The notes below the pieces were generated by a model. It was given only the letters and a program-made list of their open reading frames with translations, made no database searches and had not been told where the DNA came from. A stretch of DNA of 32,664 nucleotides from a virus: UHGV virus genome UHGV-2169520; one strand, written 5' to 3'. The position numbers and the translations under genes were made by a program. Shown here piece by piece: positions 1-31,695 of this stretch. Position 1 is the stretch's first letter; the number at the start of each line of letters is the position of its first letter.

Positions 1-222
1 ATGTTGTTTTCCCTTCGCACCAGCTTTAAAGCCACTCTTGTTAACGATGATGGTACGCCACGGATCACTGCCGAGGTGAGGAATGTGACACCTGATGATA
101 TCGGGAAGGTGGCGGAACTTGTCAGGGATGTTTTTGGTACTCCTTCCGGTACCTGCCGTTCAGACTCTGCGGCCAGGGTTGACAGGCAGGATGTTAACGC
201 CGGGTGGCTTACGCGCCTCTGA
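1..222 (+). CDS. 3' end of an ORF entering from the left edge; product unknown, possibly host gene flanking the prophage junction
   Basis: Frame open from position 1 to TGA 220-222, followed by hairpin 233-247; start not in window; no motif recognised. Confidence 0.25.
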   Translation: MLFSLRTSFKATLVNDDGTPRITAEVRNVTPDDIGKVAELVRDVFGTPSGTCRSDSAARVDRQDVNAGWLTRL

Positions 223-324
223 ATGATGATGCCCTCACTGGTGAGGGTGACAAAAAAGCCCTCTCAATGGCGGGCAAATCTGGTTTTTTGTTTTGTCTCT
301 ACAGGGAAAGGGCGCCATATCGGC

Positions 325-724
325 CCACCCCAACAACCGGATAGCGGGGAATTTCTCCCCCGCTGCGGTTTCTTACGGTTTACACTGCAAGAACGCCGCA
401 AAACGCGCTCCCCAGATATCAAAGCTGAATTCACATAACGAATCGTGGACCATCCAGATGACCAGGGTTATTGTCAGGCATCAAATGCCAACAATAATCG
501 TTTTTTGCGGTATAGCGCTTGCTCCTTTTACAAAGAGGCGCTAACCTTCCACTTGTCACGGTAGGAAGGGTCAGGCCTCGGTTAAACACAGATGTTTTCC
601 GGGGCCTTTCCACATCCGGCCTTCAGGTTTTCCCTCCGGCCATCAGCCGAAAGGCACCCGTTTCTTTTTGTTGCGGCAATATTTCAGGTGTCAGTTGGGG
701 TGGGCTGTATCTTGTCTGATGCAT
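325..724. repeat. Copy 1 of a ~400-bp structured non-coding element (copy 2 at 2333-2745)
   Basis: Alignable with 2333-2745; 3' ~230 bp nearly identical, 5' part diverged; hairpin 343-364 kept by compensatory changes; substitutions in embedded ORFs show no third-position bias. Confidence 0.6.
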
Positions 725-821
725 AAAAAAATGCCCGCGCTTTGGCGGGCAAAAGACAAGACTTTTCGTTTGTATATCATGGATAATGGACACCCTTCCT
801 GTTGTCAGGTGGCAGGCACCC
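725..821 (-). ncRNA. Candidate small RNA unit B1 (body class alpha)
   Basis: Minus-strand -35 TTGAGA (851-856), 17-bp spacer, -10 TAGATT (828-833); terminator GCCCGCC..GGCGGGC plus U7 (725-750); predicted ~95 nt; no credible ORF. Confidence 0.35.
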
Positions 822-925
822 GTGGTTAATCTACTGTTTTTGTGCTTTTGTCTCAACCCTGAAGTTTTCATGGAAAATCAGGGTTGCTTCATATGTGCCA
901 GGAAGGTGCGGCTATGATAACTGCC

Positions 926-1018
926 AAAAAAAGCCCGCTTTCCGGCGGGCAAAACAGCAATGTGAGTTGTCTGTCATTGATACTGGACAGCCTTCCTGTT
1001 GTCAGGTGGAAGGTACCC
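926..1018 (-). ncRNA. Candidate small RNA unit B2 (body class beta)
   Basis: -35 TTGAGA (1048-1053), 17-bp spacer, -10 TAGATT (1025-1030); terminator hairpin 933-950 plus U-run (926-932 on plus strand); 5' hairpin CCUUCC..GGAAGG. Confidence 0.35.
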
Positions 1019-1122
1019 GTGGTTAATCTACTGTCTTTGTGCTTTTGTCTCAACCCTGAAGTTTTCATGGAAAATCAGGGTTGCTTCATGTGAACCAGGA
1101 AGGTGAGGCGATGGTAACCGCC

Positions 1123-1148
1123 AAAAAAATGCCCGCTTTCCGGCGGGC
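1123..1148 (-). terminator. Intrinsic terminator, minus strand
   Basis: Hairpin GCCCGCTTTCCGGCGGGC 1131-1148 preceded on plus strand by A7 (U-tract on minus strand). Confidence 0.6.
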
Positions 1149-1369
1149 AAAACAAGGAAGTACGGATCATGTATTATTGATTACGAGGCATTCCACCATG
1201 CCCACGTTTAATTTAGCTAGTTTTCATTTTATTCACAATATAGTTACTTATCATATTTATGAACAAAACTGTAATTTCATCTATAGGTATAAGTGATTTG
1301 CATTAACATGTTTCTTCTGTATTGCTGTTGGTTTTCCGATGCTGATATTTATGATACATTCAAGGGCAA

Positions 1370-1575
1370 ATGAGGTTGTTCCACAGAAACGATGTTGAGA
1401 TATTTCTGCTCCAGAAAGGACAAGCTAAAAAAATAAAGTGATATTATGATATGTCAGGGATGTTCAGGCATGTCAGTGTCTTATTAATAAACTCGTTGCT
1501 GCTGTAATAACACCAAAAAAATCAAAGCATAATCTGCATGTTGTTCCTGATGACCCAATAACCACAAAAGAATAA
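1370..1575 (+). pseudogene. Decayed copy of the 71-codon ORF family (intact copy at 3197-3412)
   Basis: ATG 1370 opens MRLFHRNDVEI then frame breaks (stop after 23 codons); C-terminal homologous segment ..RDVQACQCLI..HVVPDDPITTKE present out of frame; same flanking AT-rich region and terminator as the intact copy. Confidence 0.55.
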
Positions 1576-1668
1576 AAAAAATGCCCGCTTTCCGGCGGGC
1601 AAAACAGCAATGTGAGTTGTCTGTCATTGATACTGGACACCCTTCCTGTTGTCAGGTGGAAGGCACCC
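1574..1668 (-). ncRNA. Candidate small RNA unit B3 (body class beta)
   Basis: -35 TTGAGC (1698-1703), 17-bp spacer, -10 TAGATT (1675-1680); terminator hairpin 1583-1600 plus U-run. Confidence 0.35.
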
Positions 1669-1772
1669 GTGGTTAATCTACTGTCTTTGTGCTTTTGGCT
1701 CAACCCTGAAGTTTTCATGGAAAATCAGGGCTGCTTTGTGTGCGCCAGGGAAGGCGCCTCGATGGCAGGCGC

Positions 1773-1799
1773 AAAAAAAATGCCCGTGCTTCGGCGGGC
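1773..1799 (-). terminator. Intrinsic terminator, minus strand
   Basis: Hairpin 1782-1799 (one mismatch) preceded on plus strand by A8. Confidence 0.5.
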
Positions 1800-2026
1800 A
1801 AAATAAGGAAGTACAGGTTACATGTTATTGATAAAGTAGCATTGCTCTGTCCGTCTTTAATCTAACGAGTTTTGAGTTTTTTCACAATATTGTTACCTGT
1901 CATGTTATAGATGAAACTGCAATTTCATCTATAGGTATAAATGATTTGTATTAATGTGTGTCCACTGTTTGTCTGCTTTCTGGTTTTCAGTTGACTGTGT
2001 TTCTGATGAATTCAGGAGGTTGTCTT

Positions 2027-2125
2027 ATGAGGCTGTTCCACAGAAACGATATTGAGATTGAACTGCATTTCTCCTCCGGTGAGGATAAGGTTAAATCATT
2101 GTTGATGAAAAAAACAAAGATTTAA
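2027..2125 (+). pseudogene. Truncated copy (32 codons) of the 71-codon ORF family
   Basis: Strong SD AGGAGG 8 nt before ATG 2027; first 24 codons near-identical to 3197-3268 (2 of 3 differences synonymous) then divergence and early stop. Confidence 0.5.
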
Positions 2126-2194
2126 TTTATTGATATAAAGGATTTGTATCAGCGTATGTCCACGCAGTGACCACATTTTCGAGAGGTAGAGTAA

Positions 2195-2220
2195 GCCCGC
2201 AACATTGCGGGCTTTGTCTT
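2195..2220 (+). terminator. Intrinsic terminator, plus strand
   Basis: Hairpin GCCCGCAACATTGCGGGC 2195-2212 followed by TTTGTCTT. Confidence 0.6.
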
Positions 2221-2264
2221 ATAGTCTGATCACTGTTTCAAGTCGGTGAGGACACCAAAAAGAA

Positions 2265-2298
2265 AACCCGCAGTTTTTATGCTGCGGGTTTGTTTGTT
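2265..2298. terminator. Bidirectional hairpin terminator
   Basis: AACCCGCAG..CTGCGGGTT hairpin 2265-2290 with T-rich tract after it on the plus strand and U-rich tract after it on the minus strand. Confidence 0.5.
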
Positions 2299-2332
2299 CA
2301 TGTCTGTGAGATAGGGTGCCTTATCGACCTTA

Positions 2333-2745
2333 CCCTGGCAACCGATTGACGGGGGATTGCTCCCCCGTCGCGGTTTCCTTACTTCTTACATTGTAAGAAC
2401 GCCGCAAACTCCGCTCCCCAGAAGCTCATCCGTATTTCGCACAGCGAACCGTGCAATATCCAGATGATGAGGATTGCCGTCACGCAGAACGTGATGGCCG
2501 TAAGCGATTTTTGCGACATAGCACTTGCTCCTTTTCCGGAGAGGCGCTAACCTTTCACTTGTCAAGGTAATGCGGTTAGGGCCTCGGTTAAACAGAAATG
2601 TTTTCCGGGGCCTTTCCACATCCGGCCTTCAGGTTTTCCCTCCGGCCATCAGCCGAAAGGCACCCGCGCGTAATTTAACTGTTTCTTTTTGTTGCGGCAA
2701 TATTTCAGGTGTCAGTTGGGGTGGGCTGTATCTTGTCTGATGCAT
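2333..2745. repeat. Copy 2 of the ~400-bp structured non-coding element
   Basis: Alignable with 325-724; hairpin 2348-2369 GACGGGGGA-TTGC-TCCCCCGTC; 15-bp insertion relative to copy 1. Confidence 0.6.
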
Positions 2746-2841
2746 AAAAAAATGCCCGCGCTTCGGCGGGCAAAAAACAAGACTTTTCGTTTGTATATCA
2801 TGGATAATGGACACCCTTCCTGTTGTCAGGGGGAGGTACCC
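2746..2841 (-). ncRNA. Candidate small RNA unit B4 (body class alpha)
   Basis: -35 TTGAGC (2871-2876), 17-bp spacer, -10 TAGATT (2848-2853); terminator hairpin 2754-2771 plus U-run. Confidence 0.35.
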
Positions 2842-2945
2842 GTAGCTAATCTACTCACTTTGTGCCCGCAGCTCAACCCTGAAGTTTTCATGGAAAATCA
2901 GGGCTGCTTTGTGTGCGCCAGGGAAGGCGCCTCGATGGCAGGCGC

Positions 2946-2972
2946 AAAAAAAATGCCCGCTCTCCGGCGGGC
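2946..2972 (-). terminator. Intrinsic terminator, minus strand
   Basis: Hairpin GCCCGCTCTCCGGCGGGC 2955-2972 preceded on plus strand by A8. Confidence 0.6.
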
Positions 2973-3196
2973 AAAACAATGATCTACGTCACATTATATT
3001 GATAACCGGGCATTCCTCCATGCCCATTTTTAATTTAGCCATTTTTCATTTTGTTCACAATATAGTTATCTATCATATTCATGAATGAAATTATAATTTC
3101 ATCTATAGGTATAAATGATTTGTGTTAATATGTTTCTCCTGTCTAACTGTTTTCTCATTTTTCGATACTAGTATTTCTGATATATTCAGGGGGCGT

Positions 3197-3412
3197 ATGA
3201 GATTGTTCCGAAGAAACGATATTGAGATTGAACTGCATTTCTCCTCCGGTGAGGATAAGGTTAAATCAATAAAGGTGAAACTAAGACATGCCCGGGATGT
3301 TCAGGCGTGTCAGTGTCTTATTGATGAACTCGTTGCTGCCGGAGGAACGCCAAAAAAACAAAAATATAATCTGCACGTGGTTCCTGATGACCCCATAACC
3401 ACAAAAGAATAA
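3197..3412 (+). CDS. Small hydrophilic protein (71 aa), function unknown; only intact member of a three-copy family
   Basis: ATG 3197 with G-rich SD; MRLFRRNDIEIELHFSSGEDKVKSIKVKL..; convergent with ogr; AT-rich upstream region with conserved hairpin 3008-3036. Confidence 0.6.
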   Translation: MRLFRRNDIEIELHFSSGEDKVKSIKVKLRHARDVQACQCLIDELVAAGGTPKKQKYNLHVVPDDPITTKE

Positions 3413-3505
3413 AAAAATGCCCGCTTTCCGGCGGGCAAAAAACAATTTAGGTCATATTTCATCATGGATAATTAAATACTTGCCCGTGGTTGCGGGAAAG
3501 TATCT
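3411..3505 (-). ncRNA. Candidate small RNA unit B5 (body class gamma), immediately downstream of ogr
   Basis: -35 TTGAGA (3535-3540) starts 15 bp after ogr stop; 17-bp spacer; -10 TAGATT (3512-3517); terminator hairpin 3419-3436 plus U7; also the likely terminator for ogr. Confidence 0.35.
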
Positions 3506-3554
3506 GCCGTTAATCTACTTGCCTTATGATGTCCTCTCAACCTGATTATTGTTC

Positions 3555-3806
3555 TTAAATATCAAGATTAATCTGAGTATTCCCCCTGTGAGATCCCGGA
3601 AAATCTTCCCACGGTATCCGCTCTGTACCCTGCGGCGACGGGGCGCGTTTTGATGTGAATTTGTTAAAACCCTCCAGTGTGGTAAAGCCGATCCCGCATT
3701 CGAGGTTATTGCACTGGTAGTACTTCAGGCGAACTGTGCCTGAATCATTTTCATTGCGACTGGTGCGGATACGTGCGGATGCACCGCATAGGGGACAACG
3801 GAACAT
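3555..3806 (-). CDS. ogr: Ogr/Delta-family zinc-finger late-gene activator
   Basis: MFRCPLCGASARIRTSR...YYQCNNLECG: C-x2-C...C-x4-C zinc finger matching P2 Ogr; SD AGGAGA 4 nt before ATG. Confidence 0.9.
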   Translation of the reverse strand: MFRCPLCGASARIRTSRNENDSGTVRLKYYQCNNLECGIGFTTLEGFNKFTSKRAPSPQGTERIPWEDFPGSHRGNTQINLDI

Positions 3807-3849
3807 GGCTTCTCCTTATCTGGCTGAGTGGAGATGGCTCATTTTAATT

Positions 3850-4941
3850 TTATCCGCCTGAATCTGCTATCCATTCGGGGATTTTCGCTTCCAGCTCCAG
3901 TTGTGTGGTGAAGCCGCTTTCATCTATGATGTGCTCCACCCTGGCAATAATCCAGTCCTGATTGTCCACCTCGCTTTTAAAACCTGTTACCCTGCCGTGC
4001 ATTTCGGGGTACAGGTCGGCACGACCCCGTGCCAGAGTGATGGAGAATGCCGCTGCTCCCCGCTGTAACTCCTGCCACTTTGCCGCAGCTGCACGTCGTG
4101 CGGTTTCTTCATTCTGGTAAGTCCTGCGCAGAACGTAGACGTTCCCTTCCGCGCCTTCCATGTAATCACCCTCCCGGCTGCTGCTCTTCTCCTGTTTCTG
4201 TTTCCCGGCTTCCCTGCGTCGCTTCACGTTCACTTTTTTCTTTTGCCCGAACTTCAGATCGAGCCAGTGCGCCCGGACCCCCGTATACGCATCACGGTCA
4301 GCAATGCGAAAGCGGTGACTGTCGCCGCTGCTGCGGGTAATGGCGAACGAAGGCAGGGCTCTTCCGTCCGGCCCGGTTCCGCCACCCGGCAGAATGAATA
4401 ACAGGCTGCCGTTTTTTACGGTGGCAATCGCACCCAGCATTTCAGCCATGCGGGTCAGGAAGGATATATCGCTCTCTTCGGTCTGGTCAGCGTGGTCAAT
4501 TTCGATATCCATGAGGATTTCGCTTATCTGTGTCTTCAGGCCGTAGCGGTGAGCGATGGCTGACACAACCTGTTTTACGGTCACGTCGTGCCAGGATACC
4601 TCCCGCCTCACGTTGAACTCTTCCCGAAAATCTGCGCTGCTGGCGGTGATGATCAGTTTATCTGGAGGTCCTTCCCACGCAACCTCATCAACGACGTAGG
4701 TGCCCTTGTTAACCAGTGATTCTCCTCGCCAGCCAATCATCACTCTCAGGCGTGCGCCACGTGGTGGCAACTGTAACTGCCCGTCCGTATCGTCAAGGGT
4801 GAGGGTGACGCGGTCTGCCTCAAAGGCCCGGTTATCCGTCAGGGTCAGCGTCATGAGTCGCTCTGTGAGGTTTGCCAGTGTGTTGTTGTTGATGGTGATG
4901 TCGATATCCGGTGACGGAACGGTAACTGACAGCTCTTTCAT
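3850..4941 (-). CDS. D: Tail protein D
   Basis: P2 gpD-like over full length; start set at ATG 4941 (SD AGGAGAG) rather than the ORF-track start 4977, which lacks an SD. Confidence 0.85.
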   Translation of the reverse strand: MKELSVTVPSPDIDITINNNTLANLTERLMTLTLTDNRAFEADRVTLTLDDTDGQLQLPPRGARLRVMIGWRGESLVNKGTYVVDEVAWEGPPDKLIITASSADFREEFNVRREVSWHDVTVKQVVSAIAHRYGLKTQISEILMDIEIDHADQTEESDISFLTRMAEMLGAIATVKNGSLLFILPGGGTGPDGRALPSFAITRSSGDSHRFRIADRDAYTGVRAHWLDLKFGQKKKVNVKRRREAGKQKQEKSSSREGDYMEGAEGNVYVLRRTYQNEETARRAAAAKWQELQRGAAAFSITLARGRADLYPEMHGRVTGFKSEVDNQDWIIARVEHIIDESGFTTQLELEAKIPEWIADSGG

Positions 4942-31419: not shown

Positions 31420-31459
31420 AGGTTGCAATTCTGGGTGGCGAGACGTACAGGGTTGCAAC
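31420..31459. promoter_or_regulatory. Palindromic GGTTGCAA motifs upstream of the early operon (candidate operators)
   Basis: CCAGA-GGTTGCAAT-TCTGG at 31415-31433 and perfect palindrome GGTTGCAACC at 31450-31459, 30 bp apart; third GGTTGCAA at 31597-31604. Confidence 0.4.
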
Positions 31460-31553
31460 CACCGGCAAACGAAGAAACCGGCCCGACCGAAGTCGGCCCC
31501 GTACGCCCCACCATAATTCTGGTGCGAAAAAGACGTGGCGATACGGTACGCAC

Positions 31554-31573
31554 AAAAAAACCGCTGGCGCGGT
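31554..31573 (-). terminator. Intrinsic terminator, minus strand, downstream of the HTH-protein gene
   Basis: Hairpin ACCGC-TGGC-GCGGT (31560-31573) preceded on plus strand by A7. Confidence 0.55.
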
Positions 31574-31695
31574 TGTGCGCTTCGTTTGTCAGCGGGGGTT
31601 GCAATCCCGGCACCCGTTTTATGAGGTGCAGCGGAAATGTAACCTGACTGATTGCGGCATGGCAAGCGGTTTTTTTGTGTGTGCATAGTGGTTAC

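Follow-up and report, generated by a model that had tools for sequence, protein, structure and literature searches.

The analysed window, a 32,664-nt stretch of the virus genome UHGV-2169520, carries a duplicated element of about 400 bp, recognised as such in the first-pass annotation. Both copies belong to the cargo of a P2-like prophage integrated beside serS in E. coli, in the stretch from ogr to the end of the prophage. Pairwise alignment (295-724 versus 2300-2745) gives 78.9% identity over 437 columns, distributed unevenly. In one half (519-724 versus 2525-2745), 192 of 206 aligned bases are identical (~93%), apart from one 15-nt indel, and in the other (325-518 in copy 1) identity is 69%. 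Beyond positions 300 and 2300, homology between the copies falls to 39%. Both copies are very probably type I toxin-antitoxin cassettes of the hok/sok type, encoded on the minus strand, copy 2 intact and copy 1 with a dead toxin gene. Their features are collected in Table 1.

Homology of copy 2 to 38 other hok loci covers 2300-2701. The boundaries of copy 1 correspond exactly to the segment absent from a hok-less relative (L097). The 80 viral loci encode proteins that are all 96-100% identical, with about 50 of the loci ending 3 nt past the stop codon, and a scan of genome contigs gave 6 loci. Since these sets are too uniform or too few, diversity was supplied from E. coli genomes, where relatives of the locus occur in 1730 of 5426 complete sequences (roughly a third). 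The comparisons below use 39 distinct homologues, or 40 sequences in the alignment.

Table 1. Features of the two hok/sok copies in window coordinates.
Feature	Position	Strand	Details or basis
hok/sok locus, copy 2 (intact)	2257-2745	minus	Spacer shared with copy 1, promoter, ~400-nt hok mRNA, terminator
Predicted hok promoter, copy 2	2672-2700	minus	TTGCCG (2700-2695), 17-nt spacer, TAAATT (2677-2672)
tac element, copy 2 (mRNA 5' end), GGGUGCCUUUCGGCU	2651-2665	minus	Nearly invariant in 39 homologues
ucb-like local tac partner, copy 2, AAAGGCCCCG	2606-2615	minus	RNAalifold helix; fold of truncated RNA
Predicted Sok2 antisense RNA, ~58 nt	2560-2617	plus	Fold; position relative to SokC
Predicted sok promoter, copy 2	2524-2552	plus	TTGCTC, 17-nt spacer, TAACCT
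mok-like overlapping ORF (candidate only)	2386-2619	minus	GTG start, 77 codons
Shine-Dalgarno of copy 2 hok	2528-2531	minus	GGAG
hok toxin CDS, copy 2, 46 aa, MSQKSLTAITFCVTAILIIWILHGSLCEIRMSFWGAEFAAFLQCKK	2379-2519	minus	PF01848, PHROG 251, WP_000078913.1
3'-UTR hairpin, copy 2	2347-2370	minus	Just past hok stop; fold, covariation
fbi element, copy 2, GGUCGAUAAGGCACCC	2314-2329	minus	Complementary to tac; full-length fold, helix in homologues
Intrinsic terminator, copy 2 hok mRNA	2257-2291	minus	Stem 2291-2264, 10 pairs, tail TCTTTTT
hok/sok locus, copy 1 (toxin-dead)	279-724	minus	Alignment with homologues
hok promoter remnant, copy 1	660-679	minus	-35 TTGCCG (674-679) kept; 15-nt deletion takes -10 box
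tac element, copy 1	645-659	minus	Minimum-energy fold
sok1 promoter (intact), with Sok1	519-611	plus	TTGCTC (519-524), TAACCT (542-547)
Predicted Sok1 RNA	about 554-611	plus	5' tail differing from Sok2
hok pseudogene, copy 1	373-513	minus	ATA for ATG (513-511); in-frame TGA at codon 11 (483-481)
3'-UTR hairpin, copy 1	342-365	minus	Fold
fbi element, copy 1, GCCGAUAUGGCGCCC	310-325	minus	Closes 5'-3' helix in minimum-energy fold

Toxin genes of the two copies

The first-pass annotation had described the element as non-coding, but its diverged half carries, on the minus strand, the gene for a Hok/Gef membrane toxin. The copy 2 protein gives a modest match to PF01848 (HOK_GEF; 29.0 bits, cut-off 22, covering profile positions 5-42 of 42) and matches PHROG 251, 'MokW-like host killing', over its whole length (E 8.5e-22, 77.9 bits, residues 1-46, profile 2-49 of 50). 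It is identical in sequence to RefSeq WP_000078913.1, a "Hok/Gef family protein", and homologues from P88, Xuanwuvirus and Stx phages bear the same annotation. The system is a known one, and its copy 2 toxin gene is already annotated in RefSeq and phage databases. The 46-codon ORF, with its ATG and Shine-Dalgarno sequence, is undamaged in all 39 homologues, and its variable columns show a coding pattern (27/17/34 at codon positions 1/2/3). The NCBIfam models for Hok proteins score far below their cut-offs (NF007290, HokA equivalog, 30.7 versus 89 bits; NF007279, Hok subfamily, 21.3 versus 73), which indicates a divergent 46-aa subfamily. These scores set the copy 2 toxin apart from the canonical Hok subfamily and argue against orthology with K-12 HokA.

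The mok-like frame of copy 2 would have 59 codons if translated from an alternative UUG start. A long frame overlapping hok is missing from about half of the homologues, so a canonical mok is not conserved; a conserved AUG at alignment columns 98-100 opens frames of varying length. Because the canonical frame is inconsistently present in the subfamily, translational coupling may work differently here.

In copy 1, each of the three lesions (loss of the -10 box through the 15-nt promoter gap, ATA, TGA) is unique among the 40 sequences. PF01848 scores 21.6 bits, under its cut-off of 22, even with the stop masked, and no feature is annotated at the pseudogene in any of the 27 genomes that carry it; toxin-dead copies of this kind go entirely unannotated. 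In the favoured reading, copy 1 is a paralogue that has diverged and lost its toxin through three separate lesions, with the sok promoter and Sok hairpin untouched.

Predicted RNA structure, promoters and Sok RNAs

The near-identical half corresponds, on sequence grounds, to the leader/Sok region, which appears to be conserved subfamily-wide by RNA constraints; conservation of this leader reaches 95-98% throughout the subfamily. The earlier suggestion that selection acts here on RNA structure or binding sites is borne out, this half comprising the leader of the hok mRNA, tac and the antisense RNA Sok. It had been argued from embedded plus-strand ORFs, whose substitutions do spread evenly over codon positions (6/4/4). 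As a coding test, however, these ORFs are spurious: they lie on the wrong strand, inside the RNA leader.

The Rfam family sok (RF01794) matches both leaders over its full length (1-157) on the hok-sense strand, with E-values of 7e-9 and 2e-8. The Rfam search proposed in the first-pass annotation thus yields sok by E-value; at gathering thresholds it returns no match in 1-3900, the leaders scoring 48.1 and 46.2 bits against a threshold of 59. K-12 hokC reaches 118 bits, sister loci 33-50 bits. The homology is significant, yet the whole 46-aa subfamily appears to fall under the curated threshold. As a consequence, Sok and tac/fbi are left unannotated, and the region can pass for a novel structured RNA. 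Calibration on K-12 hokC/sokC indicated that RF01794 spans the leader of hok and that sokC falls within this span on the opposite strand.

The minimum-energy folds of the full-length RNAs are closed by a helix between tac at the 5' end and fbi at the 3' end (z -9.0 for copy 2, -5.7 for copy 1). In the 39 homologues, this helix comprises 15 pairs with 97.2% of cells paired; nine pairs vary on one side and yet stay paired, and one shows a double change. When fbi is left out (fold of 2332-2665), the 5' end pairs locally with GGAAAGGCCCC. The corresponding consensus helix between tac and the local box (RNAalifold, columns 53-63 with 104-113) is paired in 38-39 of 40 sequences, with both sides invariant and hence without covariation. 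Since the tac side is almost invariant, what supports both alternative helices is that pairing is preserved and that changes are one-sided and G-U-compatible, not double compensation. For the structure as a whole, 92.5% of cells are paired in the 39 distinct homologues, compared to 35-44% with the partners slid, and 18 pairs change on both sides, compared to 6.0 +/- 1.8 in shuffles.

The 3'-UTR hairpin has an identical 9-bp stem form in both copies (-21.5 and -24.2 kcal/mol, z -4.1 and -5.0). Between them, two-sided changes exchange two of the base pairs (A-U/G-C versus G-C/A-U). The compensatory changes noted earlier in this stem extend to the 39 homologues, in which 4 of 9 pairs change on both sides and 99.1% of cells are paired.

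The predicted hok start site, G2665, coincides with position 1 of RF01794, and a -10 box (TAGATT, TAAATT, TACATT or TAGAAT) is present at the site in 38 of 39 homologues. On the opposite strand, a cis-encoded antisense RNA, Sok, with its own promoter is predicted to overlap the hok leader. The sok -35 box of copy 2 and the hok Shine-Dalgarno sequence of the opposite strand overlap, neither sok hexamer varies in any of the 40 sequences, and the arrangement matches that of the annotated K-12 sokC. Neither the hok nor the sok promoters are strong enough to pass a consensus promoter scan. The predicted Sok2 consists of a 14-nt single-stranded 5' tail, a GC-rich hairpin and a UUUCC tail (-24.1 kcal/mol, z -3.6), an architecture like that of the annotated K-12 SokC; carrying the sokC position over through RF01794 places Sok2 at 2564-2622.

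Comparison with known systems and possible function

The hok/sok system of plasmid R1, from the Gerdes laboratory, is the canonical type I toxin-antitoxin system. The locus described here shares with it a small Hok membrane toxin; a cis-antisense Sok with its own promoter within the leader; a -35 box of sok overlapping the hok Shine-Dalgarno sequence; an mRNA of ~400 nt whose 5' tac pairs with a 3' fbi or a local box; and the order of hairpin past the stop codon, fbi and terminator. The toxins differ in length (52 aa in R1, 46 aa here) and at the C-terminus (AYES in R1, FLQCK here), and are ~35% identical by MAFFT, an approximate figure. R1 hok/sok is plasmid-borne, whereas the present locus belongs to a prophage and its mok frame is inconsistently conserved.

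The K-12 hokC(gef)/mokC/sokC locus agrees with the present one in gene order and spacing: sokC occupies the stretch 49-107 nt upstream of the ATG of hokC, and the predicted Sok the stretch 41-98 nt upstream of that of hok, the two RNAs sharing their architecture. K-12 HokC is 26% identical to the copy 2 toxin. Pedersen and Gerdes reportedly described, in 1999, K-12 hok loci disabled through mutation or by IS elements, and copy 1 resembles such loci.

Close counterparts are the 'MokW-like host killing' genes of P2-like phages, namely Escherichia phages P88, Chuche and PhiR44_2 and Xuanwuvirus P884B11, with 90-95% nucleotide identity to copy 2 over the whole 400-nt locus. As here, the locus lies between an ogr-like regulator and the integrase/att end. 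These phages have one copy, without sRNA-like units, and their annotation covers the protein only, not the RNA elements. Given a textbook system, an annotated copy 2 toxin and relatives common in E. coli, the locus carries little discovery weight.

Among prophage systems, hokW-sokW resides in the Stx2 prophage Sp5 of E. coli O157:H7 Sakai; SokW vanishes upon induction, and HokW aids phage release (PMC8621323, which also summarises the R1 system). HokW has 51 aa and is 44% identical to R1 Hok (PMC8621323). It belongs to a lambdoid host element, while the toxin described here has 46 aa and its host element is P2-like. PHROG 251 takes its name from mokW, and the likeness to HokW is at the family level.

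The R1 and hokW-sokW systems suggest a sequence of events for copy 2, toward which the locus itself contributes sequence features alone. A stable hok mRNA of ~400 nt would be transcribed from the weak promoter. With tac clamped to fbi, it would be untranslatable and refractory to Sok. Slow 3' trimming would remove fbi, upon which the freed 5' end would snap to the local box and the leader refold. The refolded mRNA would be bound by the abundant, short-lived ~58-nt plus-strand Sok and destroyed. Should Sok synthesis stop, it would instead be translated into the 46-aa Hok, which would enter the inner membrane and kill the cell. The prophage might benefit through stabilisation of the element, abortion of infections or aid to lysis on induction; help in phage release, as by HokW, would be the most plausible role for a phage-carried copy.

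Role and origin of copy 1 and the neighbouring sRNA-like units

Copy 1 could have been retained as an 'orphan antitoxin' making Sok alone, which would dampen copy 2 or counteract hok elements of its own lineage that enter the cell (anti-addiction or immunity). Despite the three toxin lesions, its sok promoter hexamers and Sok hairpin do not differ from those of functional homologues, and the locus is 99-100% conserved across 27 genomes. However, what these genomes carry is in essence a single recent element, and their identity is thus hardly informative on selection. The 5' tail of Sok1 pairs poorly with hok2 (-23 kcal/mol, compared to -48 to -53 kcal/mol for cognate pairs), and a full-length Sok1 target above ~85% is found in no complete E. 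coli genome beyond the same 27. We consider such a role unlikely.

A recent tandem or segmental duplication, with the diverged half reflecting relaxed constraint afterwards, is less probable still. It would account for two sequences that are identical in the two copies and absent from every other homologue, namely 44 nt preceding the hok promoter and the terminator of the adjacent unit, and for the 3' variant common to units Ua and Ud. The toxin halves, however, have other relatives. The CDS and 3' UTR of copy 2 are 97-100% identical to other phage-borne loci; the CDS of copy 1 is nearest (72-73%) to the lineage of homologues L091 and L096, with copy 2 ranking 37th of 39, and its hairpin type (AGCGGGG..CCCCGCU) is common to that lineage. 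CDS similarity and hairpin type thus indicate that the diverged half, toxin gene plus 3' UTR, derives from two different lineages, whereas a recent duplication or conversion is suggested for the upstream flank alone.

In plus-strand sense, copy 1 is followed by two sRNA-like units (724-1122) and copy 2 by a single one (2745-2946); an sRNA-unit array next to each copy, as first proposed, is thus borne out only in part. The units resemble the hok promoter in their -10/+1/5'-end motif. Several identities were considered for them. Pas sRNAs were rejected, as these map to lambdoid lysis regions (bioRxiv 10.64898/2026.05.13.724894). Also rejected were AgvB and other known prophage sRNAs, with AgvB/RyhB matches at E of at least 0.2 and confined to the terminator, and Sok decoys, since duplex energies were no better than those of shuffles (z -1.1 to +1.0). 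It is very unlikely, taken as one proposal, that copy 1 is retained to produce Sok without a toxin and with a tail specificity of its own (as an orphan antitoxin or for immunity) and that the ~95-nt units, with a hok motif and a Sok-target-like hairpin, are internally deleted hok leaders recruited as a prophage sRNA family. The unannotated units are less well explained than the rest of the region.

A purely non-coding duplicated RNA or cis-regulatory element tied to the sRNA-unit arrays, encoding no protein, can hardly be maintained: the frame-independent conservation of the leader half, the strong RNA structure and the promoter-like motif of the units would fit it, but the intact 46-codon ORF with its coding pattern and HOK_GEF and PHROG 251 matches does not. 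The first-pass annotation had named identity with a known repeat or gene fragment as evidence against its reading, and the element is a known one, hok/sok. Nor are the units tied to it: their association with hok is local, with none at the 88 other hok loci, and the hok-less relative L097 retains them.

Identity of the repeated element

The repeated element is a minus-strand hok/sok locus, a system that is already known. The first-pass annotation had considered it non-coding, which fails on the minus strand of copy 2, where the ORF matches Pfam HOK_GEF (29 bits, cut-off 22) and PHROG 251, 'MokW-like host killing' (E 8.5e-22). Identical RefSeq records label this ORF WP_000078913.1, 'Hok/Gef family protein'. 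An Rfam search in E-value mode matched the sok model RF01794 at full length to the minus strand of both copies (copy 1, 502–659, 48.1 bits, E 7e-9; copy 2, 2506–2665, 46.2 bits, E 2e-8), each under the gathering score of 59. The model, calibrated on K-12 hokC/mokC/sokC, spans there the leader in hok sense, starting at the mRNA 5' end and stopping at the hok AUG, with annotated sokC inside it on the opposite strand. No sok RNA is annotated here because the whole subfamily scores low on RF01794, with sister loci reaching merely 33–50 bits.

A repeat search of the window recovered the reported two-copy repeat, pairing 430–660 with 2436–2666 (81%) and 346–416 with 2352–2422 (72%). The minus strands align in MAFFT as a single co-linear block; by BLAST they are 78.9% identical over 437 columns and are the only two copies in the 32.6 kb.

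Judged by its sequence, copy 1 is toxin-dead. It lacks 15 nt, including the −10 box, its start codon is ATA rather than ATG, and codon 11 is TGA where relatives have TTA or TTC; each lesion is unique among 40 sequences. PGAP calls no gene at the copy 1 toxin in any of the 27 carrier genomes. The sok promoter and Sok hairpin of copy 1 are intact. All 39 other sequences retain an intact ORF of 46–47 codons, with 27/17/34 variable columns at codon positions 1/2/3. For the plus-strand ORF at 519–719, the count of substitutions by codon position (6/4/4) agrees with the even spread described previously.

Coordinates of features of the two copies and the neighboring units
Feature	Position	Strand	Remarks
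First-pass "3' half"	519–724		192/206 aligned bases identical, plus one 15-nt indel
First-pass "5' half"	325–518		69% identity
Past 300/2300			39% identity
hok ORF, copy 2	2379–2519	-	46 codons; GGAG just upstream
Predicted Sok RNA, copy 1	554–611	+	SokC-like fold
Predicted Sok RNA, copy 2	2560–2617	+	SokC-like fold
fbi, copy 1	310–325	-	pairs with tac in fold
fbi, copy 2	2314–2329	-	pairs with tac in fold
Five sRNA-like units	724–925, 923–1122, 1574–1773, 2745–2946, 3410–~3545	-	conserved promoter-like motif and terminator

Promoters, antisense RNAs and mRNA folding

Promoters were predicted from an alignment of 40 loci (A5), comprising copies 1 and 2, 30 viral contigs, phages Chuche and 75/02 Stx, Salmonella, E. 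albertii and six E. coli chromosomal loci. The predicted hok promoter consists of TTGCCG, a 17-nt spacer and TA(G/A/C)A(T/A)T, with GGGUGCC 6 nt further on. The predicted sok promoter on the opposite strand (TTGCTC, 17-nt spacer, TAACCT) lies entirely in invariant columns, and its −35 box overlaps the hok Shine-Dalgarno sequence. The predicted Sok RNAs have a free 5' tail of 14–18 nt, a GC-rich hairpin and a U-rich tail, which is exactly the architecture of annotated K-12 SokC.

The full-length minus-strand RNAs fold far more stably than shuffles (z −9.0 for copy 2, −5.7 for copy 1). In both, the closing helix joins the first 15 nt (tac, the 5' element of hok mRNA) to its 3' partner, fbi. When fbi is omitted, the 5' end switches to GGAAAGGCCCC, which lies ~50 nt further along, and the leader adopts another fold; the local tac helix is also the consensus choice of RNAalifold. 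Pairing was counted in 39 distinct sequences against a reference structure derived from copy 2, of which 92.5% is paired, versus 35–44% with partners slid, and 18 pairs show double changes, versus 6.0 ± 1.8 in shuffles. Within the tac-fbi helix, pairing stands at 97.2%, and nine of its pairs vary on one side only with pairing kept. The hairpin proposed earlier is borne out: both copies form a common 9-bp stem enclosed by a 5-bp outer stem, and two pairs are swapped through changes on both sides. Its two versions fold at −21.5 and −24.2 kcal/mol (z −4.1 and −5.0); across the 39 sequences it is 99.1% paired, with four of nine pairs covarying.

These predicted RNA features match the known hok mRNA design, as in R1, of a 5' element with two alternative partners, a leader antisense RNA and a hairpin-fbi-terminator tail (summarized in PMC8621323). 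What the sequences themselves show is these features and the conserved alternative pairings. By extension from R1 hok/sok and hokW-sokW (PMC8621323), the hok mRNA would be stable and locked, with slow activation by 3' trimming, and the activated mRNA would be neutralized by the labile Sok RNA; once Sok synthesis stops, Hok would kill through membrane damage. By analogy, a prophage-borne hok/sok likely serves in stabilization, abortive infection or as an aid to lysis. The overlapping mok coupling frame is present inconsistently among homologues.

Origin and genomic setting of the two copies

Any two subfamily members share 95–98% of the leader; the similarity of copies 1 and 2 is therefore mostly attributable to RNA constraint and not to recent duplication. 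Other phage loci match copy 2 at 97–100% identity in the coding sequence and 3' UTR. For copy 1, the coding sequence is closest to the lineage of two homologous loci, L091 and L096 (72–73%), and the hairpin variant is also that of this lineage. The toxin halves thus come from different lineages. What copies 1 and 2 alone share is limited to the 44 nt preceding the promoter plus the unit terminator beside them, a stretch that points to a flank that was duplicated locally or gene-converted. The sole hypervariable leader stretch among the 40 homologues is the Sok 5'-tail/target (A5 columns 141–168; window 555–579 and 2561–2585). Cognate tail-target duplexes are predicted at −48 to −53 kcal/mol and non-cognate pairs at −23, so the predicted specificities of the two loci differ. 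This hypervariability is compatible with hok loci that reside together having diverged in antitoxin specificity.

E. coli chromosomes, mainly from chicken isolates, match the window at 100% identity. In them, the copy 2 hok ORF has serS on one side and an ogr/Delta zinc-finger gene on the other, beyond which come P2-type tail genes. A 90–95% identical locus occupies the corresponding position in P2-like phages (Chuche, P88, PhiR44_2, Xuanwuvirus), and Stx phages have one of ~82% identity; among 5426 complete E. coli genomes, 1730 contain a hok relative. A hok-less relative, in a prophage adjoining copA in strain CS5L, has the order ogr, unit, ORF71, unit, unit, ORF73. Its homology to the window ends precisely at 2746/2745 and 725/724 and restarts at 278. 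The hok cassettes (279–724 and ~2257–2745) are therefore discrete insertions within an array of sRNA-like units and one small ORF.

Two intact 46-codon hok paralogues annotated Hok/Gef (546–686 and 1268–1408) occur in L091, the same serS-adjacent prophage end in another strain, E. coli strain 48; tandem hok pairs therefore recur, and a dead copy is not obligatory. About 50 viral contigs (IMG/VR loci of length 2641, e.g. L009, L011, L015, L017) stop exactly 3 nt past the hok stop codon, so IMG/VR prophage-border calls drop the hok 3' UTR, including fbi. Near-identical enterobacterial-type hok loci (70–93% at the amino acid level) in assemblies of unrelated taxa, namely a Planococcaceae MAG (L085), Vagococcus sp. 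(L086) and Xanthomonas pisi (L089), are probably contamination; L085 and L089 are on short contigs, and the L085 leader is masked by a run of Ns.

Neighboring units and other features

The copy 2 gene of this known system is already annotated; the neighboring unannotated units are less explained. The placement of the copies upstream of a unit array, as the first-pass annotation put it, is a local accident, units being present at 0 of 88 other hok loci. Every unit shows a conserved promoter-like arrangement of TTGAGA and TAGATT at a 17-nt spacing, and its predicted RNA of ~95 nt runs from a 5' stem-loop through an A/C-rich linker to a GCCCGCC..GGCGGGC-U7 terminator. The units matched no Rfam family, and none was found in the phage collection; of 5426 complete E. 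coli genomes, 31 have them, at 2–8 copies each, and they are never annotated. In the −10/+1/5' end and first hairpin, the units bear a weak resemblance to the hok promoter, tac and Sok-target region (z 4–6.7). A role as Sok decoys was unsupported by duplex comparison.

Interleaved with the units is a 71-aa ORF (3197–3412, plus strand; identical to RefSeq WP_001236182.1, hypothetical protein), for which phrog_14142 (unknown function) is a match and Pfam and NCBIfam give none; two further copies (1370–1575 and 2027–2125) are truncated or degraded. At the prophage/host edge, a 73-aa ORF (1–222, plus strand), without a family match and unannotated in the window-identical RefSeq record, is 91% identical in DNA to the annotated WP_029490443.1 of CS5L. 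At the far end of the window, adjacent minus-strand C4 antisense RNA (31431–31518, 79.3 bits) and isrK (31554–31629, 61.9 bits), both above their Rfam gathering scores, suggest a P1/P7-type antisense immunity module.
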